Positions 2,540 to 19,586 of a stretch of 53,406 bases of DNA are shown here, in pieces. Under the pieces are notes generated by a model. That model made no database searches and was not told the origin of the DNA. It saw only the letters and a list, made by a program, of their open reading frames with translations. Position 1 is the first letter of the stretch, and every line of letters begins with the position of its first letter. The translations under genes and the position numbers were made by a program. Origin of the DNA: a virus (lineage: Duplodnaviria > Caudoviricetes); the IMG/VR virus record IMGVR_UViG_3300030708_002291, positions 1-53,406 of that record; one strand, written 5' to 3'.

Positions 2540-2604
2540 TGTACGGGCCGGGTGTAGGGGCTCAGTGGTGCGGTTTGGGGGGGTGGCGCACCCACTCGCC
2601 CACC

Positions 2605-3519: not shown

Positions 3520-4902
3520 ATGAATGCAAAAACCGTGAATGCAACGACAAAAACGACGAACGAGAAGCCTGAGGCCAAGAGATTGAGCCCTAAGGAGTGG
3601 AAGAAGGCCATGGAAGAAAAGTCCACCCAACTCATCTGGGACCGAGTGGTGGCCCCGATGCTTGAAGGGGACCTTCCCTCATGGAGCAAACCGTGGAAGG
3701 CGCAATACACCGTGTTTGGCAGCACCCAGACTCGGAAGGTGGACCTAGACCCCAACAGGCCATTCTGTGTTGACCATGATTCAGCAGCCCATTGTGTTGG
3801 ATACCGTGGCTTCAATCGGTCCATGCTGGGCCTGTTTGCTGGCGAGAGTGCCATCCCGGCATTCGGCACAGCGAAGCAGTGGGTGAAGGTGGCAAAGCGC
3901 ATCGCCAAGATGAAGGGCGAATCCACCAAGGACATGCCACTGGTCATCCCTGATGAGAACCAATCGATGTGCATTCCTCTGATGAGGCCACAGGAGAACA
4001 AGAACGTGTTTCTGGGCAGGTACGAGATCATGGGGAAGGACGGGAAGCCCATCATGGTCAAGTGCAAGAAAACAGGAGAGATGAAGCCCAAGACCAAGGC
4101 ACGATTCGGCATCAACTGGGGCGTCTGGAACTTCTTTGTGGTGTTCCCCTTTGAGGCTACCAACCTTGACCTGAATGATGTGATGAACTGCATCAAGTGG
4201 GAGAAGAAGGAGCAGGAGGAATTCGTCCCTGAGACTATCCTCAGGATGGACGAACTCATCAGGAGATGCGATGACCTTGAGAGCCTTGAGGGAGCCCAAG
4301 AACTGGCCCAGAAGATGCTGGCTCATGTGGCTCTGGCAGGTGGCCTGAAGCATGGAGGAGACAGGGCGTACTACACGCCGATGGCCGATGCAATCCAGAT
4401 GCCTAAGGCAGAGGATTTCAAGGGCAGCGACAACGCCCAGAAGTTGGCCCGATATGCCCACACTCTGTGCCATGAATTCAGCCATGCCACGGGCCACCAC
4501 AGCAGGCTCCGCCGTGACCTGTTGAACGGCAAGAGCAGCGAGAAGTATGCAAGGGAGGAACTGGTGGCCGAGATATCAGCGGTCATTTGCTGTGCCTCCT
4601 TAGGGATTGAAACCGAGGGGCCACAACATGCCACATACCTCAAGGGCTGGGCCAACAGGGTGGTCGGACCATCCCTTAGGGCTGAGAATGAGAATGCATG
4701 GAAGGAGGCTTGCTGGAAGGTCATGAGAGACGCCCAATCCGCTGCGGAGTGGGTGGCATACGGAACCATCCCAGAGGGCATCCAGAGACGCCTCAATGCC
4801 GAGGCAGCAGCCAAGGCCAAGGGGGAGGAAGTAGCCGTCCCAGACGCCGCAGGAAACGCCCCAGAGGTATCCTACGACAACCCATTGGAGGTGGTCGCTT
4901 GA
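3520..4902 (+). CDS. ArdC-like antirestriction/ssDNA-binding protein with C-terminal zincin (MPTase) domain
   Basis: PSWSKPW and YRGFN in the N-terminal domain; GGDRAYY..D.IQMP, HEFSHATGH.SRL.R and YAREELVAE in the C-terminal domain. Start moved to ATG 3520 behind GGAAGTGA. Confidence 0.85.
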   Translation: MNAKTVNATTKTTNEKPEAKRLSPKEWKKAMEEKSTQLIWDRVVAPMLEGDLPSWSKPWKAQYTVFGSTQTRKVDLDPNRPFCVDHDSAAHCVGYRGFNRSMLGLFAGESAIPAFGTAKQWVKVAKRIAKMKGESTKDMPLVIPDENQSMCIPLMRPQENKNVFLGRYEIMGKDGKPIMVKCKKTGEMKPKTKARFGINWGVWNFFVVFPFEATNLDLNDVMNCIKWEKKEQEEFVPETILRMDELIRRCDDLESLEGAQELAQKMLAHVALAGGLKHGGDRAYYTPMADAIQMPKAEDFKGSDNAQKLARYAHTLCHEFSHATGHHSRLRRDLLNGKSSEKYAREELVAEISAVICCASLGIETEGPQHATYLKGWANRVVGPSLRAENENAWKEACWKVMRDAQSAAEWVAYGTIPEGIQRRLNAEAAAKAKGEEVAVPDAAGNAPEVSYDNPLEVVA

Positions 4903-4934
4903 ACAACACAAACAACAACCAAGGAAGTGAGAAA

Positions 4935-5237
4935 ATGAATGGAAACAATGAGATGAAAACAACGACGAAAACGACGACTGAGAAGCCAGTTATGATCTGG
5001 ATTTGCTATGAGACATCTGGCGGCATACCTGAGGTTATGCTGGCAGGGGACGAGGCAGCAGCCCGGCAATGGTGGAAGTGGAACGTGGAGGACCGCTTCG
5101 ATGAGGAGCCATGCCAATACAACGATGGCATCACGGCACTGACTTCATGGGACGAGGGCCATGGTTTCTATGGCTCCAGCGAGGGCACAGAGTATCGCAT
5201 TGCTGTCATGCCCTTCACCAAGGGGGTGGCTGCTTGA
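4935..5237 (+). CDS. Hypothetical protein with N/T/K-rich N-terminus
   Basis: ATG after GGAAGTGA; alternative coupled TTG start at 4899. Confidence 0.7.
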   Translation: MNGNNEMKTTTKTTTEKPVMIWICYETSGGIPEVMLAGDEAAARQWWKWNVEDRFDEEPCQYNDGITALTSWDEGHGFYGSSEGTEYRIAVMPFTKGVAA

Positions 5238-5548
5238 AGACCAACATCCTGATTGAGATTGGAAGCCCATCTGGCAGCACCACGGAATTCTACAACAGGA
5301 GCGTCGAGTTGGCTATCCCTAAGGAGTTGGTTCAGGACTTCGTGGACACCATCATCGAATACGCCGGTACTGAGGCCAAGGAGGACCATTGGCAGGTGGA
5401 GGTACAGAAGCACGAATGGAAGCCCTCAGGATGGCGTGTATCGGGCAGGAAACCGACAGCCCATGAGTGGGAGTGCATCCACTGTGGGGAGGTGGTCGAG
5501 GACGGCCACAAGGCTCCCTCGGAATACTGTGAGGAGGCGGTCTATTGA
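5234..5548 (+). CDS. Hypothetical protein with C-terminal CxxC
   Basis: TTGA overlap with the upstream stop; GGGGGTG ribosome-binding site. Confidence 0.65.
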   Translation: MKTNILIEIGSPSGSTTEFYNRSVELAIPKELVQDFVDTIIEYAGTEAKEDHWQVEVQKHEWKPSGWRVSGRKPTAHEWECIHCGEVVEDGHKAPSEYCEEAVY

Positions 5549-5805
5549 GTGGCTACATGAGCGATGTTCTGGTCTGGAAAATCAGGGATGAACTGGACCC
5601 TCCATACCCCGGCTATGTGATGTTCTCATCGAGCGGAGCGGAGGAAAATATCGATCATCTGGTCGAGTATTGCGACCTTGACCCTAAGGACATCGAGGAG
5701 ATGGAGTATGGGGAGCAGGATACGGTCTGGATACCCCTTGAGGAGATGAAGCATGTTGACCCGAAGGAGTACGAGAGAATCATGTCCCTAAGGAGGGATG
5801 CCTGA
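5545..5805 (+). CDS. Acidic hypothetical protein
   Basis: TTGA coupling; GGAGG ribosome-binding site. Confidence 0.65.
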   Translation: MSGYMSDVLVWKIRDELDPPYPGYVMFSSSGAEENIDHLVEYCDLDPKDIEEMEYGEQDTVWIPLEEMKHVDPKEYERIMSLRRDA

Positions 5806-6147
5806 ATGAGTGCCCCAGAGCATTACCTGAGCCAACCGTATTGGCATGACCATCCATGGGACTACGAGGCCATGGGCCACAAGCCCGATGGAGTCAGGCC
5901 ATGTCAAGCCTGCTCCAAGCCAATCGACAGTGGTTGGGTGACGGAGTGTGGCAACGGTCCTTGGTGTTCCCCAGAGTGCATGGGATGGGACGACAGGAAC
6001 GTCATGGAGGAGGACTTGGAGGTCATCGGAGATAGCCTCTATTTCACCGAGTGGGTCGAGTCAAACGACAGCCCGGAGTGGAGGGCCGAGCAGAGGGCCT
6101 ACTACCAAGACGAATGGGACGATCTGGGAGAGGAGGTGGTCGCTTGA
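5806..6147 (+). CDS. Zn-finger protein (CxxC...WCSxxC, FCS/TRASH-like)
   Basis: CQAC...WCSPEC; resembles the protein at 30829-31044. Confidence 0.65.
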   Translation: MSAPEHYLSQPYWHDHPWDYEAMGHKPDGVRPCQACSKPIDSGWVTECGNGPWCSPECMGWDDRNVMEEDLEVIGDSLYFTEWVESNDSPEWRAEQRAYYQDEWDDLGEEVVA

Positions 6148-6257
6148 GTTGTAAGATTGTGATCCCCAATGGTGATGACATCCCATGGCAGGTCATGGAG
6201 TTGATGGACAAAATGGGCGTCGAGTATTGGGTTGTCGAGACGGAGGTGGGCGCATGA
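6144..6257 (+). CDS. Small hypothetical protein (37 aa)
   Basis: TTG start coupled to the upstream stop; ends in a GGAGGTG site and ATGA overlap. Confidence 0.5.
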   Translation: MSCKIVIPNGDDIPWQVMELMDKMGVEYWVVETEVGA

Positions 6258-6457
6258 AGAGGTTCCCAAAGTCGAAGGCCAAGATACAGGCACTGAACAT
6301 CTGTATTCACCAATACACATGGGTGGCAGGTTGTGGTGCAGAGTGGGCCATATCAGAGGGGACTGATACATTCGGTGCGCCTATCATTTGCACAGTGGAT
6401 GATATCGATTGGGCCATGGAATACCTAGACGAGAGATGCCAGAAGGTGACAGCATGA
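6254..6457 (+). CDS. Hypothetical protein
   Basis: ATGA coupling at both ends. Confidence 0.6.
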   Translation: MKRFPKSKAKIQALNICIHQYTWVAGCGAEWAISEGTDTFGAPIICTVDDIDWAMEYLDERCQKVTA

Positions 6458-6729
6458 ATCAGAGCCAGATTAGGACCCTCCTTAGGGGGAATGGGGCCAT
6501 CAGCACCAAGGAGGCATTCTATCCAGAGGATGGGCTGGCCCTGAAGCACCCTAGATACATCACATACCAACTCGGACAGTGCTGTGTCAGGAATGCTGAG
6601 ATGAAAAGCAGGTCGGCGCACTACTGCCGATCATGCGGCATGAGCCGGAGACTGGCTCACAGGATGATGGCTGAAGGTGTCGTGTTCCTTCAGTCGGAGA
6701 TTATCTCCATCGGTGGGGTGGAGATTTGA
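6454..6729 (+). CDS. Hypothetical protein with a Cys cluster
   Basis: ATGA coupling; CC...CRSC. Confidence 0.6.
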   Translation: MNQSQIRTLLRGNGAISTKEAFYPEDGLALKHPRYITYQLGQCCVRNAEMKSRSAHYCRSCGMSRRLAHRMMAEGVVFLQSEIISIGGVEI

Positions 6730-7031
6730 ACACGGAAAACAACAAACAAGGAAGTGAAAAAATGAATGAAAACAACGATATGAAAACAACGCAAAGAACG
6801 ATGAACGACAAACACGAAGGCCGAGAAGCATTGAGACAATATCTCTCTAGTGCTAAGTTCGATCTTCGTATGAAGCCCCATTTTGAAACATACGTGGACC
6901 TGCTCGCAGAGGTCAAGCGGCTGCGTAAGGAATTGAGCGAGGCAGAGGATGTCATTCAGATTGCTCTTGACCACACAAAGAATGACGATGACAGGAGATT
7001 GTTTGAGGACTTCTTGGAGGTGGTCGCTTGA
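6726..7031 (+). CDS. Hypothetical coiled-coil protein with N/T/K-rich N-terminus
   Basis: Shares a 45-nt 5' block with the gene at 4935; LLAEVKRLRKEL coiled coil. Confidence 0.65.
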   Translation: MNTENNKQGSEKMNENNDMKTTQRTMNDKHEGREALRQYLSSAKFDLRMKPHFETYVDLLAEVKRLRKELSEAEDVIQIALDHTKNDDDRRLFEDFLEVVA

Positions 7032-7360
7032 GTCAGCCATACGGACAGGACTTCATCTACCTCCTGAATTATGCCAAGAGTATGGGCATCGAGCCCAGCC
7101 CGTCGAACGTGGGGCCCGGAGAGCCCTCTTCCCATGTCTTCTCAGAGGAGGAGGTGCTGAAGATGAGGGACGAGTTGGAGATGTGCCAAATGATCATCCA
7201 GCACTTCGACAATGAGTTCAGGAAGATGCACCAGAGCCTGAATCAGGCCCAGAAGAACATGGAGGAGATTGCCCGGTATCGGCTGTCTTGGATGGGGTTG
7301 CCATCGAATGGAGGAGGCCGAACGGCAATGATGAGGAAATTGAAGGAGATGGTTGAATGA
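7028..7360 (+). CDS. Hypothetical protein
   Basis: TTGA and ATGA coupling. Confidence 0.65.
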   Translation: MSQPYGQDFIYLLNYAKSMGIEPSPSNVGPGEPSSHVFSEEEVLKMRDELEMCQMIIQHFDNEFRKMHQSLNQAQKNMEEIARYRLSWMGLPSNGGGRTAMMRKLKEMVE

Positions 7361-10251
7361 ACATCAACATCCACCCAGCAGTCCCTGAGAAGGACTACAT
7401 GGGCCACCAGTGGGCTCCGCAGCAGGTCGAGATACTGAACGACTTCGCCATGGACCTTGAGGCATGGGTCAAGGGGGAGACGGATGTAGGACCTCGCTTC
7501 GTCATCGAGGCCGTGGCAGGTTCTGGGAAGACCACCATCATCCGAGCCATGATCAAAATCGCAGCCCACATCGAGGCCAGCGGTTTAGGTCTTGACCGTC
7601 ATGCCCTGAGAAGGGCTACATCGGGTGGCCTGAAGACCATCGCCACGGCCTTCAATGTCACCATAGCCACCACCCTAAGGGATGTGCTGATAGAGGCCCA
7701 GAAGAACGGCTTCAAGGGGGCCACGACCATTGGCTCCCAGAAGGCCAACAACACCGTCAATGGGCTGGGATACCGCATCCTTAGGGAGCAGGCCAAGAGG
7801 ATGGGCGTGGCGCTGTCCATACAGGGCTCTGTCCCCAAGTATCGGGCTCTGAGCAGGATTGCCTTCGCAGAGTGGCTCAACAATCTGGGGCCAGAGGATA
7901 CCAAGGCCCTGTTCAACAAGATCGTCCGTGTTCAGGCTGATGCAGGGGTCAAGACCAACCATAGGAGAACGTGGTTTGCTATCTCCAATTCCGTGGAGGA
8001 TGCGGCCAGCATCCTGATGGATGAGGGATTCAATCCAAGGAACTTCAAACTGGACAAGGAGGCCATGGAGGAGGTCTTCAAGAAGGTCGGCGCTGTGAGA
8101 GGTGTTCGTGAACTCCTTGGATGGGAATTGGGATCGAATGCCTTCCTTCACATGGTTCACAGGGTGATGCTTCTGGGGAAGACCAGAGCCTTCGACACCA
8201 AGTCGATTTACCCTGTCGATTCCCATGGGAAGATGGCGACTGACTTCCTGTGTCCAAGACCGATTGACCATCCAAGGAGCAGGTTCTTCCCCGATGCAGG
8301 TAAGTTCGACACCGGACTGTACGCCTTCTGGAAAATAGCCGGAGAGGACCGTTTCAAGGCCTTCGACGGTCTTCAGGCCCTATGGCCCCCCAACGGTAAG
8401 AAGGACGCCAGAGGCAGCGTTGAGAAGCCCAAAGCAAAGGGTGTCCCAGAGGACGCCCGGTGCTGGGTTCTATCTGATGGCGACACATGGGTGGTGGCCT
8501 TCAATGGTGGGCAAAATGCAACCAAGAGGATCGAGGGGAAACCAGCGTGGAAGTGGGTTCGCAGCACAGGGCAGGTCGGTTCAGGGGGCATGGAGCATCG
8601 AGTCAAGCCCAACCAGAGGCTTCTGGATGGACTCACTGAGGCATTCGGGTCCAAGTTCTTCAACGGGACTGACGACGCCTCCTTAGAGGGGGAGACAGAG
8701 GCAGCGCCCATCAACGGCACTTGCACTGTGTCCTTCAGCGACCAGATATGGCTCCCTGTGGTCATGGACCTCAGGCTTGAGGACGCCATGGACGTTGCCT
8801 TCATCGATGAGGTGCAGGACCTGTCCTTCAGCAAGGCCGATCTAGTCCGACGTGCTGTCTCTGAGAACGGTGCATTCGTCATCGTCGGTGACAGGCGGCA
8901 GAGCCTGTACGCCTTCGCCGGGGCCAGAGCCAACAGCATGGATGAGAATGCCAGAGCCATAGGGGCCAAGGCATACCCTCTGACGACCTGCTACCGTGGA
9001 ACCCATAACGTGGCGGCTTCGGCCCGACGTGCCATGGCATCGGCTGTCAGAGCCATCGAAGGGACACGTCCTGATCTGAAGGCCCCTGACTACCAGAGCC
9101 ACCAGAGCCCGGACATCGAGACATGGGAGGAAGGCCCTAAGGAGATGACCATCGGGTTCGACCAGATAGTCGAGACGGTGAAAGGGATACGCAGCCTTGA
9201 TTCAGGTCATGACGGCATGTCCGTCATATCGAGGATAGCGGCTCCTCTGGGGACCGTCATCAAGAGCCTCCTTAGGGAGGGGATACCAGTGTCCACGCCA
9301 GCCATCAACAAGTTCGACAAGGACATCCTGAAGATGCTGAAGGCTCCCCTTCCAAGGGACTTCGGCAAGCCGACCAAGGCTTCACCCGGATTCGGGATAG
9401 GGGAGAACAATTCGCTCTATCCCAGAACGATGCGGAGACTTGCTGCCCAACTCAGGGAGTACCTGTTGTTGCAGGCCACGCAGAGGGCTGGTGGAGACAT
9501 GACGCAGGCCAAGAGAGATCAGAGATACAACGACGAGTGTGACATGCTGTCATTCACCATGAACCTGCTAGAGACGTTCTGGGAGCAGAACGACGAGGAT
9601 GTCAAGGAGATAACGGAATTCGCTGCTTGGATGAAGGAGGTTCTGTTCTCCAAGGATGCCAACGCCGTCCACGTCGCAACGGTCCACCGATACAAAGGAG
9701 AGCAGGCAGACAGGGTGTTCATCATCAGGTCGATGCCAGCCAAGAACGACAAGGGCGAGGACTATGACAGGGACTGCTTCCTGCTGAAGTTCGCCATCGA
9801 GAGCCACAGCACCAACGCCATCCAAGAGATGAATGCCCTGTACGTCGCAGCGACGAGGGCCAAGCGGCAGAACATCTGGGTCAGGGCGACATTGGAAGAT
9901 GACGATTCGGAGGACCTGATGGAGATCATCATGGACTGTGAGAACGGAGATACCGAATCCGAGCCTCTGGAGGCCCCTCAGAGCCACGCAAATGGTTCTG
10001 ATGGGGTATCGGAGCCTGAGAGCAAAGAAGGCGCTCAGATTGGCTCTATCGTGATCCCTGATGGTGTCATCACTGGAAGGTGCGCTAACTGCGGTGAATT
10101 CAGCAACCCTGACTTCAACGACGGTGAGGGTGTCGTCGGGACTCCAATCGGGCCGAGGGCGTTTTGCACTGAGAAGTGCTGGGCCCAATTCACCGGGAAC
10201 CCTGTCAAACCAGAGGGATACTACGGCTTCCTTAGGGGGGTGGGTGCTTGA
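7357..10251 (+). CDS. Superfamily 1 (UvrD/Rep-like) helicase with a large insertion and C-terminal Zn finger
   Basis: AVAGSGKT (motif I), FIDEVQD (II), VGDRRQSLY (III), TCYR (IV), TVHRYKG (V), LYVAATRAK (VI); CANC...FCTEKC tail. Confidence 0.9.
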   Translation: MNINIHPAVPEKDYMGHQWAPQQVEILNDFAMDLEAWVKGETDVGPRFVIEAVAGSGKTTIIRAMIKIAAHIEASGLGLDRHALRRATSGGLKTIATAFNVTIATTLRDVLIEAQKNGFKGATTIGSQKANNTVNGLGYRILREQAKRMGVALSIQGSVPKYRALSRIAFAEWLNNLGPEDTKALFNKIVRVQADAGVKTNHRRTWFAISNSVEDAASILMDEGFNPRNFKLDKEAMEEVFKKVGAVRGVRELLGWELGSNAFLHMVHRVMLLGKTRAFDTKSIYPVDSHGKMATDFLCPRPIDHPRSRFFPDAGKFDTGLYAFWKIAGEDRFKAFDGLQALWPPNGKKDARGSVEKPKAKGVPEDARCWVLSDGDTWVVAFNGGQNATKRIEGKPAWKWVRSTGQVGSGGMEHRVKPNQRLLDGLTEAFGSKFFNGTDDASLEGETEAAPINGTCTVSFSDQIWLPVVMDLRLEDAMDVAFIDEVQDLSFSKADLVRRAVSENGAFVIVGDRRQSLYAFAGARANSMDENARAIGAKAYPLTTCYRGTHNVAASARRAMASAVRAIEGTRPDLKAPDYQSHQSPDIETWEEGPKEMTIGFDQIVETVKGIRSLDSGHDGMSVISRIAAPLGTVIKSLLREGIPVSTPAINKFDKDILKMLKAPLPRDFGKPTKASPGFGIGENNSLYPRTMRRLAAQLREYLLLQATQRAGGDMTQAKRDQRYNDECDMLSFTMNLLETFWEQNDEDVKEITEFAAWMKEVLFSKDANAVHVATVHRYKGEQADRVFIIRSMPAKNDKGEDYDRDCFLLKFAIESHSTNAIQEMNALYVAATRAKRQNIWVRATLEDDDSEDLMEIIMDCENGDTESEPLEAPQSHANGSDGVSEPESKEGAQIGSIVIPDGVITGRCANCGEFSNPDFNDGEGVVGTPIGPRAFCTEKCWAQFTGNPVKPEGYYGFLRGVGA

Positions 10252-10388
10252 GCAGAGGCATCTGTGACGACGGCATCGCCTGTGAGCAGGATCATCCAAC
10301 GACGCTCAATGAGTATGGGTGCTGCCCTCTTTGCGAGGAGCAGCGCAACTACGAGAACGACAAGTTCCCATTGGGGGTGGGCGCTTGA
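10248..10388 (+). CDS. Small Cys-rich protein (46 aa; not in the ORF track)
   Basis: Manual translation MSRGICDDGIACEQDHPTTLNEYGCCPLCEEQ...LGVGA; TTGA coupling at both ends. Confidence 0.55.
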   Translation: MSRGICDDGIACEQDHPTTLNEYGCCPLCEEQRNYENDKFPLGVGA

Positions 10389-10690
10389 GCCATCCCCTCT
10401 GGGTCCAAGTGGCGCTAGACGTTCTGGAGATGGACGCCCTCCCTAAGGAGCCCCCGGTGGAGGGGGGGCTGTGTGGGGCGTGTGGCTGGGATAGCCGATG
10501 CACCCATGACGGCCTCCTTAGGGAGAGGTCCAACGGCAGTCACAGATGCAGCGGCTGTGGGCTCCTGACCCATGGCGGCGCTCTGGCTGGGGAGGAGTCC
10601 TGCCCAGAGTGCGGGAGGATCGCCAAGCCACTGGAGAGAGGCTATATTCTGAGCCATGGTTCGCTGGGTCCCAAGGAGGAGTCCGAATGA
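10385..10690 (+). CDS. Multi-CxxC Zn-ribbon protein
   Basis: CGACG, CSGCG and CPECG; coupled TTG start. Confidence 0.6.
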   Translation: MSHPLWVQVALDVLEMDALPKEPPVEGGLCGACGWDSRCTHDGLLRERSNGSHRCSGCGLLTHGGALAGEESCPECGRIAKPLERGYILSHGSLGPKEESE

Positions 10691-11232: not shown

Positions 11233-11306
11233 AGGACAGCAGGCCAAGGCTCCTAAGGAAGGTCGAGGACCCGATGTTCATCCTCTGGGAATACGAGGTG
11301 GCATGA
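11229..11306 (+). CDS. Putative 25-aa coupling peptide
   Basis: GTGA and ATGA overlaps at both ends; ends in EVA with a GAGGTG site. Confidence 0.35.
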   Translation: MKDSRPRLLRKVEDPMFILWEYEVA

Positions 11307-11644: not shown

Positions 11645-11697
11645 TAGGGTCAGATGAGGGAGAGAGGATATAATCGAATCATCATTCAGGATCAGCC

Positions 11698-13278
11698 ATG
11701 ACCATGATGGCAGGGCCGAACGGACAACCGATTTTCATACTAAGAGATGGCACAGAGCGAACGACAGGAAGGACGGCGCAGCACAACAACATAGCCGCTG
11801 CGATGGCCGTCGCAGATGCAGTGAGGACCACATTAGGTCCCATGGGCATGGACAAACTTCTGGTGTCGGGAGGTGGGGAGAACGTCCTCATCACTAACGA
11901 CGGTGCGACCATCCTTAGGGAGATCGACATAGACCATCCAACGGCCAAGTTGGTGATCGAGGTATCCAAGAACCAAGAGGAGAAGTGCTTCGATGGCACG
12001 ACATCCGCCGTGGTCATTGCTGGGGAGTTGCTCAAGGAGGCGGAGGGGCTCCTCCAGCAGCAGATACACCCGACCATCATAGCCAGAGGATACAGGATGG
12101 CCTCACAGGAGGCTCTCAAGGAGTTGGAGAACCTCGGATGGGGTCCAACAGGGGATGACTTCTTCGGCGTGGCACACACAGCCCTGACGGGCAAATCCGC
12201 TGAAGCCGCCATCGAGGTGATCTCCAAGATGTGCGTTGAGGCTGTCGGCATGACGGCAGATGGCGAAGCATTCGACATGGACAACGTGAAGGTCCTATCC
12301 TTTGAGGGAGGAGCGTATGATGAGTCAGCCCTCCTTCCCGGTGTTCTGGTCGAGAAGGAGAAACTCCACTCCACCATGCCTATGGAGATAGAGAAGGCGG
12401 ACATCCTCCTCCTCATGTCAGCCATAGAGGTGAAGAAGACCAAGACCGACATGCAGTTCAACGTCAATGATCCAGCGCAGGTCGAGAAGTTCCTCGCACA
12501 GGAGGAGAAGGCCATCAGGGAGATGGTTGACAGCATCATAGAGTCCGGTGCTAACGTCGTGGTGTGCAACAAGGACGTGGATGATCTCGCAGCGCACTAC
12601 CTCGCCAAGGCTGGCATCTATTGCATCAAGAGGGTGAAGAAGTCGGACATGGAGTCTCTCCATCGACTGACAGGAGCCTCTCTCGTCAATGACGACATAA
12701 GCATGGACGCTCTTGGATCATGCTCCCTTAAGGAGATCAAGTTCGGGGAGCATAGATGCACCTTGATCGAGAAGGACGGGGCGAAGACAGTCACAGCCAT
12801 CCTTAGAGGATCGACAGGACACTCAGTCGATGAGATAGAGAGGGCATTCGATGATGCCCTTGGCGTCGTGGGACTGGCATTCAACGATGGGACTCTGGTC
12901 GCAGGTGGAGGAGCCATCCATGCGTGGTTGTCATACCATCTAAGGAAACTGGCAACCTCCAAGGGAGGCAGAGTGGGGATGGCGATAGAGGCATTCGCCA
13001 ATGCCCTTGAGGTCATACCGAGAACGCTCGCAGAGAACGCCGGGCTTGATCCAGTGGACACCATCTTGGACCTGAGGAAGCATGAGTCATTCACCCATGG
13101 AGTCTCCACGGAGGACGGCATCGTGGACATGATAGACGAGGGCGTCATAGAGCCCCGCAGCGTCATCTCCAATGCCATCTCAGCAGCCACAGAGGCATCT
13201 GTGATGGTCCTAAGGATAGACGACGTGATCTCCATGAAGGGAGGAGCCCCACCAGCCCCTCCTCAAATGGGCATGTAA
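11698..13278 (+). CDS. ths: Group II chaperonin (thermosome subunit)
   Basis: GQPIFIL, TLGPMGMDKL, ITNDGATIL, DGTTS, AGGGA, IPRTLAENAG.D and LRIDDVI; GGAPP..MGM tail. Confidence 0.97.
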   Translation: MTMMAGPNGQPIFILRDGTERTTGRTAQHNNIAAAMAVADAVRTTLGPMGMDKLLVSGGGENVLITNDGATILREIDIDHPTAKLVIEVSKNQEEKCFDGTTSAVVIAGELLKEAEGLLQQQIHPTIIARGYRMASQEALKELENLGWGPTGDDFFGVAHTALTGKSAEAAIEVISKMCVEAVGMTADGEAFDMDNVKVLSFEGGAYDESALLPGVLVEKEKLHSTMPMEIEKADILLLMSAIEVKKTKTDMQFNVNDPAQVEKFLAQEEKAIREMVDSIIESGANVVVCNKDVDDLAAHYLAKAGIYCIKRVKKSDMESLHRLTGASLVNDDISMDALGSCSLKEIKFGEHRCTLIEKDGAKTVTAILRGSTGHSVDEIERAFDDALGVVGLAFNDGTLVAGGGAIHAWLSYHLRKLATSKGGRVGMAIEAFANALEVIPRTLAENAGLDPVDTILDLRKHESFTHGVSTEDGIVDMIDEGVIEPRSVISNAISAATEASVMVLRIDDVISMKGGAPPAPPQMGM

Positions 13279-13389
13279 TCTGACCTTTGCTTATAAGGAC
13301 AGGCTCGCAGTCAATCGTTTTGTTCGGACAACATTGATATACCCACACCACTTCTGAGGTATGAGGACATGTTCCTCGGAGGTAAAAAT

Positions 13390-13842
13390 ATGAATGAGAA
13401 AACTGAGAACAAAACGACGAAAACGACGAATGCCAAACTGAAATTGACGGGCTTCCAGAGGATGTGCTTGGAACATGCCCTCGGAGTCGATTACGAATAC
13501 GAGGAATATGAGGACAGAGGTCGCCTCACTGCCGAGCAATGTGAGGACGCCCACGATTGGATACACGGCAAGTTGATGGTCCCATGGATACCCGGACAAA
13601 CCGAACCAGACTGGAAGCCGATAACAATCACCATACCCGCTGACATGATTGAGGCTGTATGGTATGTGTTGGACAATGCGCGTGATGCCAGCGTGATGCT
13701 GGCTGATGGCGAAATGTATCATAATATGCGATGCGATGATTACACAACGGGAGACATATCTGAGGAGTTGGCAGACAGCATCATAGACAGGACGAGTTAT
13801 GCAATCTGGGTTAAACTCAATGCGCTCAAGGAGTTGATTTGA
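13390..13842 (+). CDS. Hypothetical protein with N/T/K-rich N-terminus
   Basis: GGAGGT site then MNEKTENKTTKTT; preceded by a short intergenic gap. Confidence 0.7.
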   Translation: MNEKTENKTTKTTNAKLKLTGFQRMCLEHALGVDYEYEEYEDRGRLTAEQCEDAHDWIHGKLMVPWIPGQTEPDWKPITITIPADMIEAVWYVLDNARDASVMLADGEMYHNMRCDDYTTGDISEELADSIIDRTSYAIWVKLNALKELI

Positions 13843-14127
13843 ATGGGGGATGAATATTTCGTAATACCCAATGCGTGGTCTTCCACTGGTGACGGCGGCG
13901 CTCCGGGCAGGACGGCTCACATTATGAGAAAGCCAATGAACAGTGAATACGATCTTTCGTTTGATGGGTACTATGCCACTCTATGCAAACCACATGCTTG
14001 GTGCGCTACTAACTGGCTTGCGAGTAAGACGAACGAGAGATACCCTATATGCCAGCGGTGCTTGAGGAAATGGAAGCGAATGGGTGGAGAGATTGTCGAT
14101 GGCGCCTTGAAGATGGAGGTGGCCTGA
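13843..14127 (+). CDS. Hypothetical protein with His/Cys motif
   Basis: AH...LC...CQRC; abuts neighbouring genes. Confidence 0.6.
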   Translation: MGDEYFVIPNAWSSTGDGGAPGRTAHIMRKPMNSEYDLSFDGYYATLCKPHAWCATNWLASKTNERYPICQRCLRKWKRMGGEIVDGALKMEVA

Positions 14128-14388
14128 ATGAGCAGGAAGGTCGTGGAATATAGGATTCATTGGGGTAGCGAAGGAGACTCACACGACATTGAGTTTGTCG
14201 AGGGTAAGAACTGGCGATATGCGAAAGAGGTCGTTAGGCAGTGTGAAGATGGGGCGATCCCATATTGCGATGTCACGAAATTGAGCATTCAATGGATAGA
14301 GAGAGTCGTGGATACTTGGTGCGAATTTGAGTGTAGCATCATTGACTCCGAGTATGATATTCTATGGGAACAGGAGGAATCAGAATGA
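14128..14388 (+). CDS. Hypothetical protein
   Basis: GGAGGTG ribosome-binding site; contiguous operon. Confidence 0.6.
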   Translation: MSRKVVEYRIHWGSEGDSHDIEFVEGKNWRYAKEVVRQCEDGAIPYCDVTKLSIQWIERVVDTWCEFECSIIDSEYDILWEQEESE

Positions 14389-14615
14389 GTGACAGGATAG
14401 TCAGCATCACGCATGGCGAGTACGAGATAATGAGTCTCATTCAGGACACCATCGATCTGAGCGAGTTGAAGGAGAGCATGTGCAACGACAGGGTGAGCAG
14501 AGACAGGTTCGATAAGGCCGCTAAGAGTGTCGCCGTCCTGATTGACAACATGATGAGCAGGCGTACACACAGATTGCCTAAGGGACATCGTGACTACAAG
14601 GAGAGAGAGGCATGA
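14385..14615 (+). CDS. Hypothetical protein
   Basis: ATGA coupling. Confidence 0.6.
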   Translation: MSDRIVSITHGEYEIMSLIQDTIDLSELKESMCNDRVSRDRFDKAAKSVAVLIDNMMSRRTHRLPKGHRDYKEREA

Positions 14616-14887
14616 AGGTATTCCGACATGCCGTTGTTGGCAACAGGAACCTGTGCGGTGCGCCGAGGAAATCAATGCCTGAGAGATACATGTCGAGTGA
14701 GAGGTATCTGCATGAGGTCAAGGCATGTCCCAAGTGCAAGGAGATGGACCCTGAACTGAAGGGCTTCGATGAACTGCTGAAGCAGCAGCCAGTGGTGTTG
14801 CAGCAGCCAGTCGTGAAACCAGCCGTTGTGCATGTCAACACCACCCTATACCTGCGTGACTACCTGACAGGGAGGGATTCCCAATGA
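14612..14887 (+). CDS. Hypothetical Zn-binding protein
   Basis: H...LCG...CPKC; ATGA coupling. Confidence 0.6.
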   Translation: MKVFRHAVVGNRNLCGAPRKSMPERYMSSERYLHEVKACPKCKEMDPELKGFDELLKQQPVVLQQPVVKPAVVHVNTTLYLRDYLTGRDSQ

Positions 14888-15066
14888 GCAGCACACTATG
14901 CCTGCTGTGTGGCATCATCGAGATAACGACTCCTAAGGAGGGGCGTCGTCGGGTGGGTGGCGTCTGGATCGACAACGTGTTCTATGAGCCTGATCAGATA
15001 TGCACCGAGTGCATGGGCAAACACATTGCCTCGGTCATCAACAGGAGGTGGTCAAATGAGTCCTAA
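14884..15066 (+). CDS. Small Zn-finger protein
   Basis: CLLC...CTEC. Confidence 0.55.
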   Translation: MSSTLCLLCGIIEITTPKEGRRRVGGVWIDNVFYEPDQICTECMGKHIASVINRRWSNES

Positions 15067-15562
15067 GGGAGATACATCGAACAATCCGGCATTGGAGTAT
15101 GTAAGGATGGTAATGAGGAGGTTGAAAGAGAGAGACTATAACCCCCGACCTCCACGGACGGATGCCCAGAGTGGGCAGGATATGATAGATATGAATGAGA
15201 AAACACCAAGAAAACAAAACAAAAAATGGACGAAAATGGAAGACAGGAAACTGCTCGCTATGGCGGAGAAGAGAGTGAAAAGGTCGGAGAGGGCAAAGGT
15301 TCTGAAAAGATCCGTGATGGCTTGTGACCAGAGGCTGTTCAACCTCAGGCAGGCAAGCGGGACGAATCCACTCAAGACGAATGGGGTCAAGAGGACCGCT
15401 GCCATCAACAAGGTTATTCCAGCCTCAGATGATGAAATGGTCAAGATGCTGAAGTCGATGGAGGAGATATTCAAGCAGAACACTCGTCAGAGGGCTGTGA
15501 TACAGGCCACCATCGACAAGATGGAGAATATATTGGTCAATCTAAAGAGGTCTTTGGAATGA
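15056..15562 (+). CDS. Myb/SANT-like helix-turn-helix protein with coiled-coil tail
   Basis: KWTKMEDRKLL...AKVLKRS..AC.QRL resembles a Myb repeat. Start uncertain (15056 or about 15182-15191). Confidence 0.55.
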   Translation: MSPKGDTSNNPALEYVRMVMRRLKERDYNPRPPRTDAQSGQDMIDMNEKTPRKQNKKWTKMEDRKLLAMAEKRVKRSERAKVLKRSVMACDQRLFNLRQASGTNPLKTNGVKRTAAINKVIPASDDEMVKMLKSMEEIFKQNTRQRAVIQATIDKMENILVNLKRSLE

Positions 15563-16566
15563 GTAAGAAAAGAATCAAGGAAACCTTGAGCGATGCAGGC
15601 ATCACTAGAGTCCCTGCCGATCTCGGACCGTCATTGAAGGCCCTCGCAGAAGTCTGTGAGGACATATACAAGGAGCAGATTGGAGATGCCATGTATCTCC
15701 CTGAGAGTGAGCGGAAAGAGGCAGGTAGTCTGGAGGAGGTCCACAAGACCGACATCGAGATACTCGTTGCAGGAAAGTCCCTGAGGCTCGTCAGAGACAA
15801 CCCCGGAAAACCAGCCATCGTGATACCCTATGGCATGTCAGACAAGGTGACGACAGCAGCGATGCCATGGTCATGGGTTTGCTCCATGCTATACCAGTCA
15901 TTGGTGACGGCATTCGGAGAGGAGGGATTCGTCCAAGACCTCTCCAAGTGGATTAACGATGAGATCAACAAGGCGACCAAGACTGACAATGGCAGAATCA
16001 AGATAGAGACATCCAAACTGCCATCACCCAAGAATGCGATAGCAGTGTCAGAGTTCCTTGAGTCCCTCAAGAGGACATCAGTCAGCAAATCAAGAGGATC
16101 AACGAGGATAAACCTCGCTGTTTCCGTCAACGACGCACGACAATCAGGGGGTAGAGCCCCTTCGATTGAAGATATCGTGGCAAATACGACTCCAGAACCG
16201 ACAAGGGGTGATGGCGATATCGAGGTTTCTCATATCCCCTCACTTCCAAACAACACGTCGTCACCCAGCACAGAAGTGAGTATGGCTACGCGCAACAGTG
16301 CCTCGGAGACGGAGGGAACGGGAGATGGAGGGGAATCATTCACTCCTCCATCTTCCACCCTAAGGGAAGACATAGACAGCATGATCATGGGTGTCTTCAC
16401 AGGAGAGCCACTGTCCATAGGGCAGATACGAAAGAGGATGCCAGAGAGCGTCTCAGAGGTCATCTGGAGGAGCCATCTGGATGGACTGGTCAATCAGGGC
16501 GTCGTCACCAAGGAGGGCGTCAGGAGATCCACCAAGTACACCCTTAGCGTGGAGGTGGCCGCATGA
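15559..16566 (+). CDS. Hypothetical protein with probable C-terminal winged helix
   Basis: LSIGQIRKRM...LDGLVNQGVVTKEG.RRSTKY after a low-complexity linker. Confidence 0.7.
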   Translation: MSKKRIKETLSDAGITRVPADLGPSLKALAEVCEDIYKEQIGDAMYLPESERKEAGSLEEVHKTDIEILVAGKSLRLVRDNPGKPAIVIPYGMSDKVTTAAMPWSWVCSMLYQSLVTAFGEEGFVQDLSKWINDEINKATKTDNGRIKIETSKLPSPKNAIAVSEFLESLKRTSVSKSRGSTRINLAVSVNDARQSGGRAPSIEDIVANTTPEPTRGDGDIEVSHIPSLPNNTSSPSTEVSMATRNSASETEGTGDGGESFTPPSSTLREDIDSMIMGVFTGEPLSIGQIRKRMPESVSEVIWRSHLDGLVNQGVVTKEGVRRSTKYTLSVEVAA

Positions 16567-17066
16567 ATAGTGAATCGGGCCAGCCAGAACAGGAGATATG
16601 GTATGCAGTCCATATGAGGGAGCCACCGTATGTGAAAATCATTGAGGAGATGGTCAACCCCTCCTTAGAGGAATTACAAGAGGCCGTTAAGGGGTCGTCG
16701 CCTAGAGGGATGATTGAGAGAGTCCCCAACAAAGTCGGGTTTGAGGTATATTGCCATGAGGAGGGACTGATGTGGCAATTGCCACAGAATAACCTATTCG
16801 GATCGATGGTCGGATGGAGAAACATGGACACCATTTTTCACATGACCATGTTCCCCAATCTAGGAACCATAGTCATCAAGGACAATGATGCCCTAAGGAA
16901 ATGGGATAGCGGGATACTCTACAACGATCTAGTCAGGATAGCAAAGTGGGGGAAGACTCAGTGTAAGGTATGTGGATCAGGAAGGGATGCCGAAGAGATA
17001 GAGAACGAACACCTTCACAACAACTGCAAAGTGTGTGACAGCAAAATCAGGGGGGAGGAGGAATGA
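16563..17066 (+). CDS. Hypothetical protein (DUF3846-like N-terminus, C-terminal CxxC pair)
   Basis: PSLEELQEAV.G..IE.V...YCHEEG....LP.N pattern. Confidence 0.55.
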   Translation: MNSESGQPEQEIWYAVHMREPPYVKIIEEMVNPSLEELQEAVKGSSPRGMIERVPNKVGFEVYCHEEGLMWQLPQNNLFGSMVGWRNMDTIFHMTMFPNLGTIVIKDNDALRKWDSGILYNDLVRIAKWGKTQCKVCGSGRDAEEIENEHLHNNCKVCDSKIRGEEE

Positions 17067-17308
17067 CCGGGCCTAGAAAGGAGGCTATCAAGGACTTCTG
17101 TGTCAGGAAGATACATGAGAACGGGCCATTGAACATCCACTCCATCTATGATCTCATGATTGATTCATTGGGGACGAGGATACCATCAAGGAGAGTCGTC
17201 TCTGGGTGGCTATCGACGGATACCAGATTGAGGAAGGACAACGCGCTCAACGTATGGACGCTTAGAGACAGGTCGAGAATGATGCGTCACAGGTGGGATA
17301 GAAGATGA
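17063..17308 (+). CDS. Small winged-helix-like protein
   Basis: GPL.IHSIYD...PSRR.VS.WL..D.R......W.L pattern. Confidence 0.5.
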   Translation: MTGPRKEAIKDFCVRKIHENGPLNIHSIYDLMIDSLGTRIPSRRVVSGWLSTDTRLRKDNALNVWTLRDRSRMMRHRWDRR

Positions 17309-17433
17309 CTTCCAAGATCATTGAGAATTGCAGGATGTGCGGTCTGAAGCGTATCATGTGGGGAAGCCATGATGGATCTCTATACTGCAAGCAGTGCTTT
17401 GAGAACAGGGGCAAGATGGAGTTGTCGAAATGA
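17305..17433 (+). CDS. Small Zn-finger protein (42 aa; not in the ORF track)
   Basis: MTSKIIENCRMCG...LYCKQCFE; ATGA overlaps at both ends. Confidence 0.6.
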   Translation: MTSKIIENCRMCGLKRIMWGSHDGSLYCKQCFENRGKMELSK

Positions 17434-17708
17434 GTGAGACTGATTGGGACATGCTTGATTACGGCAACTTAGATCACATGAGCAGACATGAACTGGAGGA
17501 CGCGGTGCGTGAATCATGGGCTGTCATTGAGAAGTTGCGAAGGTATGAGCAAGACCACAAAGAACTGTGCGACATCATTCTTAACTTCTCACCACAAGAT
17601 TCCGAAGAGGATGATGACATCCATGAACAATGGCTGGAATCAGTATCACAAGGCTACATGGGTAGTGTCTATGACTATGTAATGATGAAGCGAGAGGAGG
17701 CGATTTGA
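17430..17708 (+). CDS. Acidic hypothetical protein
   Basis: Coupled ORF. Confidence 0.6.
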   Translation: MSETDWDMLDYGNLDHMSRHELEDAVRESWAVIEKLRRYEQDHKELCDIILNFSPQDSEEDDDIHEQWLESVSQGYMGSVYDYVMMKREEAI

Positions 17709-17903
17709 ATGAGATTCAAAGTCGGTGACATACTCATCAACAAGCATACAGGTGATTCCGTTAAGGTAATCAAATACGAACCTGAGTGGGCCATTCCCGT
17801 CTATGAGGTCGAGGACATCGATAGTGGCCGTGTTGGTAGGTTCAATCAGAAATACACCCGGCATTGGGACCTTGTAATGACTAATGGAGGGGAGGATGAA
17901 TGA
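17709..17903 (+). CDS. Small beta-barrel (SH3/KOW-like) hypothetical protein
   Basis: MRFKVGD...G..VKV...YEV. Confidence 0.5.
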   Translation: MRFKVGDILINKHTGDSVKVIKYEPEWAIPVYEVEDIDSGRVGRFNQKYTRHWDLVMTNGGEDE

Positions 17904-18304
17904 TTCGATGTTCCCATGTCGAGAATGGCATCCAATGTAGCGAGAGTGCGATTGAATTGTATAAATACAAATCTATGAACTACGCCGATTATAAAATGCA
18001 AGAGCGTACAGTCATGAGCAAATACTGCTTTGAACATCATTGTGAACATCACTTCGGTCCATCTGAAACACTATCCTCATATTGTGCAGAATGCCCTGAA
18101 GATGCCGAGCCGATGATTGTAATGAACAAAAGATTGGAGTTATTGCACAGAATGGAAGAGGGGATGTGGGGCGACCCTAAAGGAGATGGCGACATATCAT
18201 CCGATCATGGATACTGTTGTCCCGAACATGGTGGTAGCAAAGACCAATGGGCAAAATATGCATCACGTAAATCTATCACTTTTGTAAGGAGTGATTGCAG
18301 ATGA
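17900..18304 (+). CDS. Cys/His-rich hypothetical protein
   Basis: Several C/H pairs; visibly more AT-rich than neighbours. Confidence 0.55.
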   Translation: MIRCSHVENGIQCSESAIELYKYKSMNYADYKMQERTVMSKYCFEHHCEHHFGPSETLSSYCAECPEDAEPMIVMNKRLELLHRMEEGMWGDPKGDGDISSDHGYCCPEHGGSKDQWAKYASRKSITFVRSDCR

Positions 18305-18612
18305 GCAGTAAAAGTGACAAGACATACCAAGTCGGTCCCAAGGATGTCACCTTCAACAAGCGTCCTAAGGGAAGGGATGCGAAGCAGGTATGGGTATGGG
18401 CGTCTCAGGTGTTCGGGGCTCCCCCCGGATGGATGAGGATGATACCAGCCCAGACATCATTCAATGGCAAGACTACTAAGACTACCAAGTGGCTTTTGGC
18501 TAGGGACGCTGACGATGAGAAGGCGGAGATAGAGATCAATGCCACGGCCAAGAAGGCAGCATCCATGCTGTATGATATGGCATGTGAGATACAGAGGGAA
18601 CGAAGTGATTGA
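18301..18612 (+). CDS. Hypothetical protein
   Basis: ATGA coupling; GGAGTGA site. Confidence 0.6.
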   Translation: MSSKSDKTYQVGPKDVTFNKRPKGRDAKQVWVWASQVFGAPPGWMRMIPAQTSFNGKTTKTTKWLLARDADDEKAEIEINATAKKAASMLYDMACEIQRERSD

Positions 18613-19243
18613 GATACCAAAGGCTCCTAAGGTTCCTATCTTCATAGGGGTTGCCAGATGGGCAGAGGTCTTGCTCATGGTCAATCCAACAGGAGATGTT
18701 CCATTGAAGTCGGATGTTTCAGGAACCGAAGATGGTATGGCATGGGACAAGAGAAACCCACTCATCATATTCCCCATGCTTGACCCTCCCATTGGATTGG
18801 GGGCTAGGGCTCATCCCATGCTTGCTTATGATCCTGTATCAGGAAGGAGAGGATGGGTATGCGTCTCGCTGTTCAAGGACAAGACGCTGCTAAATGTGTC
18901 TCCCTTATCCGAAGACCCAGATGACGAGTCTCTCCTTAGAGAGATAACGGATCATTTCGCAGCGTCTAATTGGGATGCTATTCCCGGTATGATAGACATC
19001 GACAATATATCCAGACTGATACCAGAAGACATGAAGCAAAGGAAGTCAGTCCAATCAGGATTCGATCCGTTGGCATCGGTATGGTGGGCAGGAGAGTCCT
19101 GTGATGCCTGTGGAGCCCCTACATTGGATAGGGAGGACGATGATCCATGCCCTGTATGTGGAGAACCCAAGGTGTTCAAGAAGCAGCCTGAGGTTGACAT
19201 GAGTGATGATGGCTCATTCGGCCTTGGTGATGAGTGGATATAG
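18605..19243 (+). CDS. Hypothetical protein with C-terminal rubredoxin-like Zn ribbon
   Basis: CDACG...CPVCG; probable GTG start. Confidence 0.65.
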   Translation: MIEIPKAPKVPIFIGVARWAEVLLMVNPTGDVPLKSDVSGTEDGMAWDKRNPLIIFPMLDPPIGLGARAHPMLAYDPVSGRRGWVCVSLFKDKTLLNVSPLSEDPDDESLLREITDHFAASNWDAIPGMIDIDNISRLIPEDMKQRKSVQSGFDPLASVWWAGESCDACGAPTLDREDDDPCPVCGEPKVFKKQPEVDMSDDGSFGLGDEWI

Positions 19244-19586
19244 AGAGAGGATATATCCTATTCCAGTGTGGAAGACAACCATGGCAGACGCAAGAGGAAT
19301 GGCAATAGCCATTGAGAGGAGATACAGGATGCTCTCCAATCCATGGAGAGAGATCATCGCAGAGATAAGGGCAGAGCGCGGATCGCTTCTGGCTTCAGCA
19401 GAATTCTCAGACCTAGTTGGCGTCGAGAGATCAGATGCCCTTGATGCTCTTGACTCTCGCCTAAGGACAGCAGAGGATTGGGTTAGAAGATACGAGGATG
19501 AGAGGCATCAGCATCCATTCCTAGTGAGGAGATGGCTGAAGTCCCTATCCACCATGACTGATGATGAGTTGGAGGGCAACGCATGA
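19230..19586 (+). CDS. Hypothetical helical protein
   Basis: Overlapping ORF in the operon. Confidence 0.6.
   Translation: MSGYRERIYPIPVWKTTMADARGMAIAIERRYRMLSNPWREIIAEIRAERGSLLASAEFSDLVGVERSDALDALDSRLRTAEDWVRRYEDERHQHPFLVRRWLKSLSTMTDDELEGNA

Follow-up and report, generated by a model that had tools for sequence, protein, structure and literature searches.

Why should a viral genome from which many short palindromes have been removed carry one palindrome, CCTWAGG (W stands for A or T), again and again within a single block of its genes? The question is raised by IMG/VR record IMGVR_UViG_3300030708_002291, a single contig of 53,406 bp that was analysed over its full length and is referred to here as the window. 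CheckV puts its completeness at 50%, and assembled contigs from other samples overhang its left end by at least 524 nt. Marine group II archaea are the hosts to which thermosome-encoding tailed viruses have been assigned (Philosof et al., 2017, PMC5434244; Nishimura et al., 2017, PMC5332604), and the window, which represents about half of its genome, derives from a virus of this type. It encodes a thermosome subunit (NCBIfam thermosome_alpha) as well as a PriS-like primase fragment, a Sak4-like ATPase, a PD-(D/E)XK (PDDEXK_1) nuclease and an XPF/ERCC4 nuclease, and a homologue of its helicase was found in a metagenome-assembled genome labelled Thalassarchaeaceae. All genomes compared here are uncultivated fragments, and their open reading frames (ORFs) are mechanical calls. 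The main-text passages of three papers on magroviruses and Poseidoniales viruses (PMC5434244, PMC5332604, PMC11706807), supplements aside, mention no motif, repeat or palindrome, and a literature search for 'CCTWAGG' returned a single paper, on regulation in Shewanella.

Distribution and anatomy of the palindrome

Counting by software recovered all 32 of the CCTWAGG sites that a first-pass annotation of the sequence had listed by hand, and no others (Table 1). None lies in positions 1-3588, 26 fall within 3589-19466 (hereafter the arm), and six lie to the right. These six stand as the annotation gave them, but the 34 kb around them is not the rest of the genome, since the window is a fragment of 50% completeness. 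That the motif might prove uniform once counted by software is refuted, with 26 of 32 sites in 31% of the length (binomial P = 7e-9). A two-boundary maximum-likelihood segmentation places the limits at 3.5 and 22.4 kb; density is 1.48 sites per kb between them and 0.12 per kb in the remainder of the window. The dispersed array that the annotation had inferred is borne out, and it is confined to one gene block. The block comprises, in order, an ArdC-like protease gene, small unassigned ORFs, a UvrD-like helicase gene, the thermosome gene and further unassigned genes. The first-pass annotation assumed it to be the first-expressed and perhaps the first-injected DNA.

The excess withstands several null models. 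Over the whole window 32 sites compare with a mean of 3.45 in dinucleotide shuffles (standard deviation 1.57, maximum 7), none of 100 shuffles reaching the observed number, and Markov models of orders 0-3 fitted to positions 3000-20000 predict 0.9-3.5 sites where 26 are observed. A maximal-order Markov model was rejected as a null: sub-words of the motif are themselves enriched, and the signal is masked. The control that the first-pass annotation had proposed, a codon-preserving shuffle, was run by exchanging synonymous codons within each ORF, keeping the protein and the codon usage of each gene, in 500 shuffles; it is conservative because the motif's own codons remain in the pool. The enrichment persists, with 26 sites in the left arm against 7.60 ± 2.02 (maximum 13) and 0 of 500 shuffles reaching 26. 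In the adjoining same-strand block (19587-32887) four sites compare with 1.62, a number that 31 of 500 shuffles attain.

The excess belongs to one exact word. In the arm its ratio of observed to expected occurrences is 23.8 (1.1-1.4 expected), one-base variants range from 0.35 to 2.6, and recognition would thus be essentially all-or-none. Among the 128 classes of odd 7-mer palindromes in the arm CCTWAGG stands at z = 21 and the next class, CGCWGCG, at z = 7. The S-centred counterpart CCTSAGG (S, C or G) is not enriched under the codon shuffle (11 against 8.45, a count attained in 91 of 500 shuffles), and CCTNAGG was rejected as the true site, only its W-centred half being enriched (26 against 7.6). 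An excess of spacings of 60-140 bp (6 of 25, 2.7 expected) was dropped as a sign of paired sites, the probability of 0.046 being too weak. As a side observation, CGCWGCG occurs six times in positions 2900-19600 against 0.6 expected and five times elsewhere against 2.0, and AGCSGCT likewise exceeds expectation.

The true site is a 9-bp degenerate palindrome, YCCTWAGGR (Y, pyrimidine; R, purine). As the first-pass annotation had noted, most arm sites show this extension (22 of 26), with Y at -1 in 23 and R at +1 in 24. It was also right that the sites lie inside coding sequence in different frames: 13 are read C CTW AGG (Leu-Arg), 11 CCT AAG G (Pro-Lys) and one CC TTA GG (Leu-Gly), while one, at 14932, falls between ORFs; no site uses the frame in which it would contain a stop codon. 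The centre base is A in 18 and T in 8 of the 26, with all genes on the same strand. Use of all stop-free frames with either centre base places the signal in double-stranded DNA, and the earlier claim of a DNA-level signal is further borne out by exchanges of A and T at the centre in relatives and by the codon control.

The enrichment stands out against a genome that otherwise strips palindromes, which argues that it is no accident of composition. Over the whole window AGCT is absent against about 145 expected and CCWGG against about 131, GTAC occurs 26 times against 92, and GTCGAC, GCATGC, CCCGGG, CTGCAG, CGATCG and CCTAGG are all missing. Related viruses (loci L075-L144) each have a purged set of 4- and 5-mers of their own, drawn from words such as GATC, CTAG, GTAC, CGCG and GGWCC, a pattern suggesting that their hosts exert a restriction pressure specific to each lineage.

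Turnover in close relatives and substitution in distant ones

Relatives were obtained from alignment-based scans; single-protein scans of viral contigs returned none, megablast of the arm against isolated phages gave no match, and tblastn with the helicase gave distant matches only (25-27% identity). Seven short metagenome contigs whose helicase shares 69-86% protein identity with that of the window carry 4-7 CCTWAGG sites each per 2-4 kb, many of them at homologous positions, with the centre elsewhere also changing between W and S. The gradient along the genome, which the first-pass annotation had proposed to look for in related viruses, recurs in G008 (an IMG/VR contig; locus L075), in which the thermosome is 92% identical and 13 of 15 sites lie in the first 12 kb, the part that matches the window up to about 20.7 kb. 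Its centre base is A in 5 and T in 10 of the 15 sites.

Individual sites are gained and lost freely. Between the window and L075, at 86% nucleotide identity, nine sites are common, ten are found only in the window and six only in L075, and nearly all of the differences are single transitions. Arm sites are retained in 7 of 16 and 7 of 10 cases, a small sample, against a baseline of 36.8% for all 7-mers. Site positions thus change at close to background speed, yet density is maintained at about 20 times the expected level; what evolves is a site density of about 1.5 per kb and not the individual positions. Among near-identical strains from independent marine samples (runs X3-X5) scattered differences were seen, for example over 4262-4434, where T>C at 4404 abolishes the site at 4402.

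A sister lineage of 44% G+C, whose helicase and thermosome share 37% and 69% identity with those of the window, carries a different palindrome in the same block. CCTWAGG is absent from the portions examined, including G001, a 36-kb record. G001 instead has 20 copies of TCTAWTAGA, with 15 falling before 12.8 kb and 18 before 18.5 kb, and no copy of the reversed control pattern. The word is usually extended to TTCTAWTAGAA and is read in two frames (Ser-Asn/Ile-Arg and Leu-Ile/Leu-Asp/Glu), one site lying within the Walker B motif of the helicase. The block is syntenic with that of the window, containing the MPTase, helicase and thermosome genes and homologues of ORFs 15559, 10546, 18295 and 18539. 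Here the ArdC-like MPTase and the UvrD-like helicase form a single ORF of at least 1642 aa (51-4979 of locus L079, record G001) that holds ten TCTAWTAGA sites; after this fusion, a 'polyvalent' protein, come an N6_N4 DNA methyltransferase and a superfamily 2 (SF2; ResIII/DEAD) helicase. When the two palindromes are aligned on W they have in common C at -3 and a pyrimidine at -4, with the mirror-image G and R, and differ in the inner bases -2/-1, which are CT in the window lineage and TA in the sister lineage. Between the two lineages, proteins of the block share 37-44% identity, compared with 45-68% for most genes after the block.

In a third, more distant lineage CCTCAGC is enriched in both orientations, with 24 occurrences against 2.8 expected in L094, 17 against 1.9 in L087 and 24 against 4.6 in L093, and in G003 19 of 38 copies fall within a 13-kb stretch that surrounds the genes for helicase and thermosome. 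These counts, made without codon control, are suggestive of a further case. A scan for plain, odd and spaced palindromes over 20 related loci and the window arm gave strong signals only in the window and TCTAWTAGA lineages, several intermediate lineages having none.

Other repeated words were noticed along the way. CATCAGC, CACCTGC and GTAGTCA are enriched in other loci, with P of 1e-7 to 1e-11 under an imperfect null. L010, an unrelated viral contig of 36% G+C, has 16 copies of TCCGGA over 20.9 kb, where 2.5 would be expected, frequently in the form TCCGGAA or TTCCGGAA, and the word recurs in L009; iterated palindromes may thus occur in other environmental viruses too. At 14888-15100 of L133, a related viral contig, and also in L128, 11-12 copies of an 18-bp unit (GGCCTCTCCGGTTCCTCC) stand in tandem and probably encode a Gly/Glu-rich repeat on the opposite strand.

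A putative reader and the competing explanations

The reading favoured here, tentatively and at somewhat less than even chances, is that YCCTWAGGR forms a recognition-site array for a virus-encoded dimeric binder that controls the whole block. The site would have been embedded in the coding regions of the block, about 19 kb long, for the most part by the use of particular synonymous codons. Its reader would be a two-fold symmetric, sequence-specific protein with an exactness like that of a restriction-modification enzyme, handling the block as a unit. Binding might, for example, silence or shut off transcription of the block, or shield it, and the binder would co-evolve with its site, the sister lineage keeping the outer frame YC..W..GR and swapping the inner bases. 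An exact symmetric site in double-stranded DNA, its density across the whole block and its swap between lineages argue for such a symmetric, co-evolving reader. A binder encoded by the virus itself is preferred because restriction to one block is what most sets the array apart, the outer frame was kept when the palindrome switched, and two zinc-ribbon ORFs are restricted to the lineages concerned. It is from these properties that we infer binding of YCCTWAGGR by a protein, the possible identity of that protein and the effect that binding would have. The options put forward in the first-pass annotation, namely a protein that protects, organises or represses, or methylation marks, are still the live ones, and the finding of lineage-specific palindromes in one and the same block strengthens the case for a dedicated recognition system.

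The two zinc-ribbon ORFs (10319-10690 and 18539-19243) are candidate readers of the palindrome. Across 22 loci (tblastn, E<=1e-5) they are found only in the two palindrome-bearing lineages; the former matches L075, L079 and L076 and none of the 19 other loci. A structure model of the latter was unusable, with a predicted local distance difference test score (pLDDT) of 34. A third block protein, of 335 aa (15559-16566), is kept across all thermosome-virus lineages compared and has a C-terminal winged helix (residues ~266-335; pLDDT 86-90 for 268-335) that matches winged-helix chains at Z about 9, for example Pyrococcus Rpa2 and MarR/PadR regulators. A low-complexity linker joins this domain to an N-terminal domain of about 200 aa, conserved in sequence and modelled mostly at pLDDT 40-75. 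Since both the protein and its third helix are retained in palindrome-free lineages, it is unlikely to set the specificity of the site.

Scans of the block ORFs with Pfam, PHROGs and NCBIfam, which covered four of them (4698-5237, 16563-17066, 17900-18304 and 18539-19243) in part, revealed no nuclease, methyltransferase or classical regulator. No ParB_N domain occurs in the window or in four relatives, and when the sequences of three block proteins were compared with those of solved structures, no match fell below E = 0.6.

Several observations weigh against a virus-encoded regulator of this kind. The non-coding region of about 700 bp ahead of the block holds no CCTWAGG and no cluster of sites. 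An exact target of 7-9 bp is short for a regulator, and with near-misses not enriched it is more like a restriction-modification site. Single sites are not clearly better conserved than random 7-mers (14 of 26 against 36.8%), which also fits a functionless mutational drive. The zinc-ribbon ORFs are candidate readers by their distribution, and the winged-helix protein is conserved, putative recognition helix included, where the palindrome is lacking. The word of the third lineage, CCTCAGC, is not a palindrome, and L077, L078 and L080-L084 have no iterated palindrome.

Rather than a regulator's operator, the palindrome might be the target of a DNA methyltransferase of virus or host, in the manner of the highly iterated palindromes (HIPs) of cyanobacteria, an explanation that is rather unlikely on balance and is nonetheless the main rival. 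Sites would then accumulate either because the mark is used, as a strand or self mark or to time expression, or because methyl-directed mismatch repair is biased and produces them incidentally. Such a drive, if it acted mainly on heteroduplexes formed when diverged co-infecting genomes recombine, could be strongest in the variable arm. The style and exactness of the motif are those of a restriction-modification site, turnover is high with weak positional conservation and differences that are mostly transitions, and the virus has a UvrD-like helicase and nucleases of PD-(D/E)XK and XPF type. Related viruses do encode DNA methyltransferases: an N6_N4 enzyme lies, with an SF2 helicase, inside the block of the TCTAWTAGA lineage (the methyltransferase in G001 and G002), and C5 enzymes lie just outside the block in G003, G004 and G006, with a weak match in G007. 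Precedent exists in alternate HIPs matched to methyltransferases and in a proposed repair ratchet (PMC4390886). Against this, neither PF00145 (C5) nor PF01555 (N4/N6) has a match in the 53-kb window or in the 29-kb G008, both of which are fragments and in which other families were not searched singly. The products expected from deamination are not depleted. The methyltransferases of G001 and G002 are 66-85% identical and the neighbouring helicase 94%, yet TCTAWTAGA is common to both viruses. Methylation alone, moreover, leaves the limit to one block unexplained. An improbable alternative is that the sites direct recombination as Chi does, a viral helicase-nuclease recognizing them so that degradation is attenuated or recombination is started in the variable arm. 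Over-representation combined with turnover is known for Chi and uptake sequences (PMC5861425), the required kinds of enzyme are encoded (UvrD-like helicase, PDDEXK_1 and XPF-like nucleases, Sak4-like ATPase), and the arm is the part that diverges fastest. Chi, architecture imparting sequences (AIMS) and uptake sequences are, however, strand-biased and non-palindromic, whereas CCTWAGG is neither, its centre being free in orientation (A/T 18/8 here and 5/10 in G008), and a site that is cut to begin recombination should be lost by gene conversion, not gained.

Very improbable, and a shade more so than recombination, is that a virus-encoded restriction-type endonuclease cleaves or nicks at the palindromes, the arm being nicked or processed as in interrupted-genome phages. 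The motifs are in the style of the CTNAG group of Type II restriction-modification sites, which includes CCTNAGG and CCTCAGC, and many block ORFs belong to no known family. CCTWAGG resembles these sites in length, in exactness, in being an odd-length palindrome or near-palindrome and in the core C-C-T-N-A-G. It differs in that it is enriched and not avoided, while AGCT, CCWGG and GTCGAC are purged, in that only the W-centred half of CCTNAGG is enriched, and in that no cognate enzyme gene was found. No nuclease of the kind required was found in the block, and the purging of other palindromes argues that cutting is costly. Least credible of all, to the point of being nearly negligible, is an effect at the level of codons, peptides or RNA, such as a favoured codon pair, a Leu-Arg or Pro-Lys peptide, or a Shine-Dalgarno-like or anti-Shine-Dalgarno-like sequence. 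AGG is indeed the commonest Arg codon throughout the genome, CCTAAGGAG contains TAAGGAG, and TCCTTAG resembles the 3' end of the 16S rRNA. The excess nevertheless survives a fixed protein sequence and codon usage, and one 7-mer arises from different codon pairs in three frames. Pro-Lys is spelled CCT AAG in 11 of 23 cases in the arm against 1 of 20 in neighbouring same-strand genes, and Leu-Arg is spelled CTW AGG in 15 of 39 against 5 of 23 in the next block. The centre flips orientation, and the sister palindrome is unlike a Shine-Dalgarno sequence. Frames, codon shuffle, dipeptide spelling and centre flips together contradict the RNA-level and codon-pair explanations.

Known arrays of protein-binding sites offer functional analogies to the virus-encoded binder proposed here and are best regarded as such, not as families to which CCTWAGG belongs. 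The KorB sites of IncP plasmids are 13-bp palindromes, about a dozen in number, bound by a ParB-family protein. As generally described, they resemble the present array in being palindromes spread over tens of kilobases, some of them distant from promoters, that control a set of genes; they are longer and fewer, and the window and four relatives lack a ParB_N domain, as noted. Stoperators are 13-14 bp long, asymmetric, oriented with transcription and mostly intergenic, whereas CCTWAGG is a palindrome of 7-9 bp that lies inside genes with its centre in both orientations, all genes being on one strand. The likeness is that in Cluster A mycobacteriophages tens of these short sites are spread across the phage genome, with a sequence that varies by sub-lineage, and that they are bound by one phage protein, which blocks transcription (PMC9283540).

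The closest analogue is provided by the cyanobacterial HIPs, namely HIP1 (GCGATCGC) and the alternate HIPs. Both phenomena involve a short exact palindrome, enriched 15- to 300-fold in cyanobacteria (PMC4390886, PMC5861425) and about 24-fold here, that occurs about once per kb inside coding sequence and in all frames, apart from the stop-giving frame that is unused here. In both there is no peptide or RNA motif behind the palindrome, the palindromes are lineage-specific, and methyltransferases are suspected. Alternate HIPs, whose density is about one site per kb, accompany methyltransferases with a corresponding specificity, and their over-representation has been modelled as possibly a by-product of methyl-directed repair (Elhai, 2015, PMC4390886). 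The differences are equally clear. HIPs occur in cyanobacterial chromosomes and genome-wide, whereas the present palindrome belongs to an archaeal virus and to a block of about 19 kb (1.48 against 0.12 per kb), a limit also seen in G008 and G001. Its length is odd and its centre W, and the window yielded no cognate methyltransferase. For HIP1 a positional conservation above controls has been reported; the corresponding figures here are those given above, 14 of 26 against a baseline of 37%.

The block, its surroundings and what they may mean

The sites and the principal genes of the block are collected in Table 1. The block also encodes many small lineage-specific proteins.

Table 1. Positions of the motif-rich block, of its principal genes and of all CCTWAGG sites in the window; words at homologous positions in relatives are given by locus or run.
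Feature	Position	Strand	Remarks
Motif-rich domain	3589..22368		28 of 32 CCTWAGG, 1.48 per kb; + strand block from ArdC-like gene to first conserved core genes
ArdC-like protein, zincin metallopeptidase domain (MPTase-PolyVal)	3262..4902	+	PF18818 1.1e-30; phrog_7245 anti-restriction protein 2.2e-32; first large block gene; 4 sites
UvrD-like superfamily 1 helicase, 964 aa, Cys-rich C-terminus	7357..10251	+	5 sites
Small Cys-rich (CxxC) zinc-ribbon ORF	10319..10690	+	Candidate reader by distribution
Thermosome (group II chaperonin)	11698..13278	+	NF041082, 591 bits; 2 sites
Conserved 335-aa protein, C-terminal winged-helix domain	15559..16566	+	Present in lineages with and without palindrome
234-aa ORF, C-terminal CxxC...CxxC zinc ribbon	18539..19243	+	Candidate reader by distribution
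CCTAAGG	3589..3595		CCT AAG, Pro-Lys
CCTAAGG	4402..4408		Pro-Lys; CCCAAGG in L041 and runs X3-X5
CCTTAGG	4598..4604		Frame CC TTA GG; retained in L041
CCTTAGG	4674..4680		Leu-Arg; retained in L041
CCTAAGG	5318..5324		Pro-Lys
CCTAAGG	5683..5689		Pro-Lys; CCTGAGG in L038
CCTAAGG	5787..5793		Leu-Arg; next start codon 19 nt downstream
CCTTAGG	6480..6486		Leu-Arg; retained in L037 and L041
CCTAAGG	7674..7680		Helicase gene; homologous centre in relatives A, T, A, T, T, A
CCTTAGG	7779..7785		Helicase gene; retained in 5 of 5 covering relatives
CCTAAGG	9136..9142		Helicase gene; CCTGAGG in L034, L036, L037, L075
CCTTAGG	9270..9276		Helicase gene; retained in every covering relative
CCTTAGG	10230..10236		Helicase gene end
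CCTAAGG	10442..10448		Zinc-ribbon ORF 10319-10690
CCTTAGG	10516..10522		Zinc-ribbon ORF 10319-10690
CCTAAGG	11252..11258		TCTAAGG in L075
CCTTAGG	11913..11919		Thermosome gene; retained in L075
CCTAAGG	13209..13215		Thermosome gene; CCTGAGG in L075
CCTAAGG	14577..14583		
CCTAAGG	14932..14938		Sole inter-ORF site, upstream of ORF 14957-15562
CCTAAGG	15062..15068		
CCTAAGG	16359..16365		ORF 15559-16566
CCTAAGG	16892..16898		Retained in L075
CCTAAGG	18364..18370		Retained in L075; L075 adds a site 27 nt upstream
CCTAAGG	18626..18632		ORF 18539-19243; CCCAAGG in L075
CCTAAGG	19460..19466		TCTAAGG in L075
CCTTAGG	21457..21463		Retained in L075
CCTTAGG	22362..22368		CCTTAGA in L075
CCTTAGG	28186..28192		Outlier
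CCTAAGG	30219..30225		Outlier
CCTTAGG	35537..35543		Outlier
CCTTAGG	45283..45289		Outlier

Outside the block two further regions were noted. The non-coding stretch of about 700 bp at 2251-2970 separates divergent gene blocks and may be an origin or control region. It contains long runs of A and of T, C-rich CCACC tracts and repeated GCATTGCC(C/A)GCATTGCC units. On the minus strand two adjacent ORFs, 35012-41566 and 41560-47808 (2184 and 2082 aa, without Pfam match), adjoin a tape-measure-like gene at 49035-50600 and presumably encode tail or adhesion proteins.

Taken beyond this one genome, the comparison of lineages raises the possibility, held with slightly more reserve than the single-virus reading and likewise short of even chances, that an iterated-palindrome system specific to one block exists in the tailed viruses of marine group II archaea, in which a dedicated, fast-evolving reader marks the accessory, anti-defence block by way of sites placed within coding sequence. 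As part of the same possibility, the specificity of the reader would switch by lineage (YCCTWAGGR, TTCTAWTAGAA, CCTCAGC), and the reader could be a regulator or a restriction-modification-like protein. More than 20 years on, the HIPs of cyanobacteria still lack an explanation (Xu, Lawrence and Durand, 2018, PMC5861425). If the possibility proves true, the array would be the first relative of that phenomenon carried by a virus, and the first restricted to a domain. The present case brings to the HIP problem a small viral genome, a sharp internal boundary and a palindrome that was swapped while the gene block was kept. Such a case would be tractable: the small genome, the boundary and the swap in the sister lineage make it feasible to search for a gene that co-varies with the motif, and natural changes of specificity could reveal what the palindromes are for. 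Genomes of these uncultivated marine archaeal viruses have been cleared of restriction sites to an extreme degree, yet one palindrome is kept in the block of the ArdC-like and helicase genes. The combination hints that genome control or self-marking has a further layer, as yet undescribed, in the conflict between virus and host.

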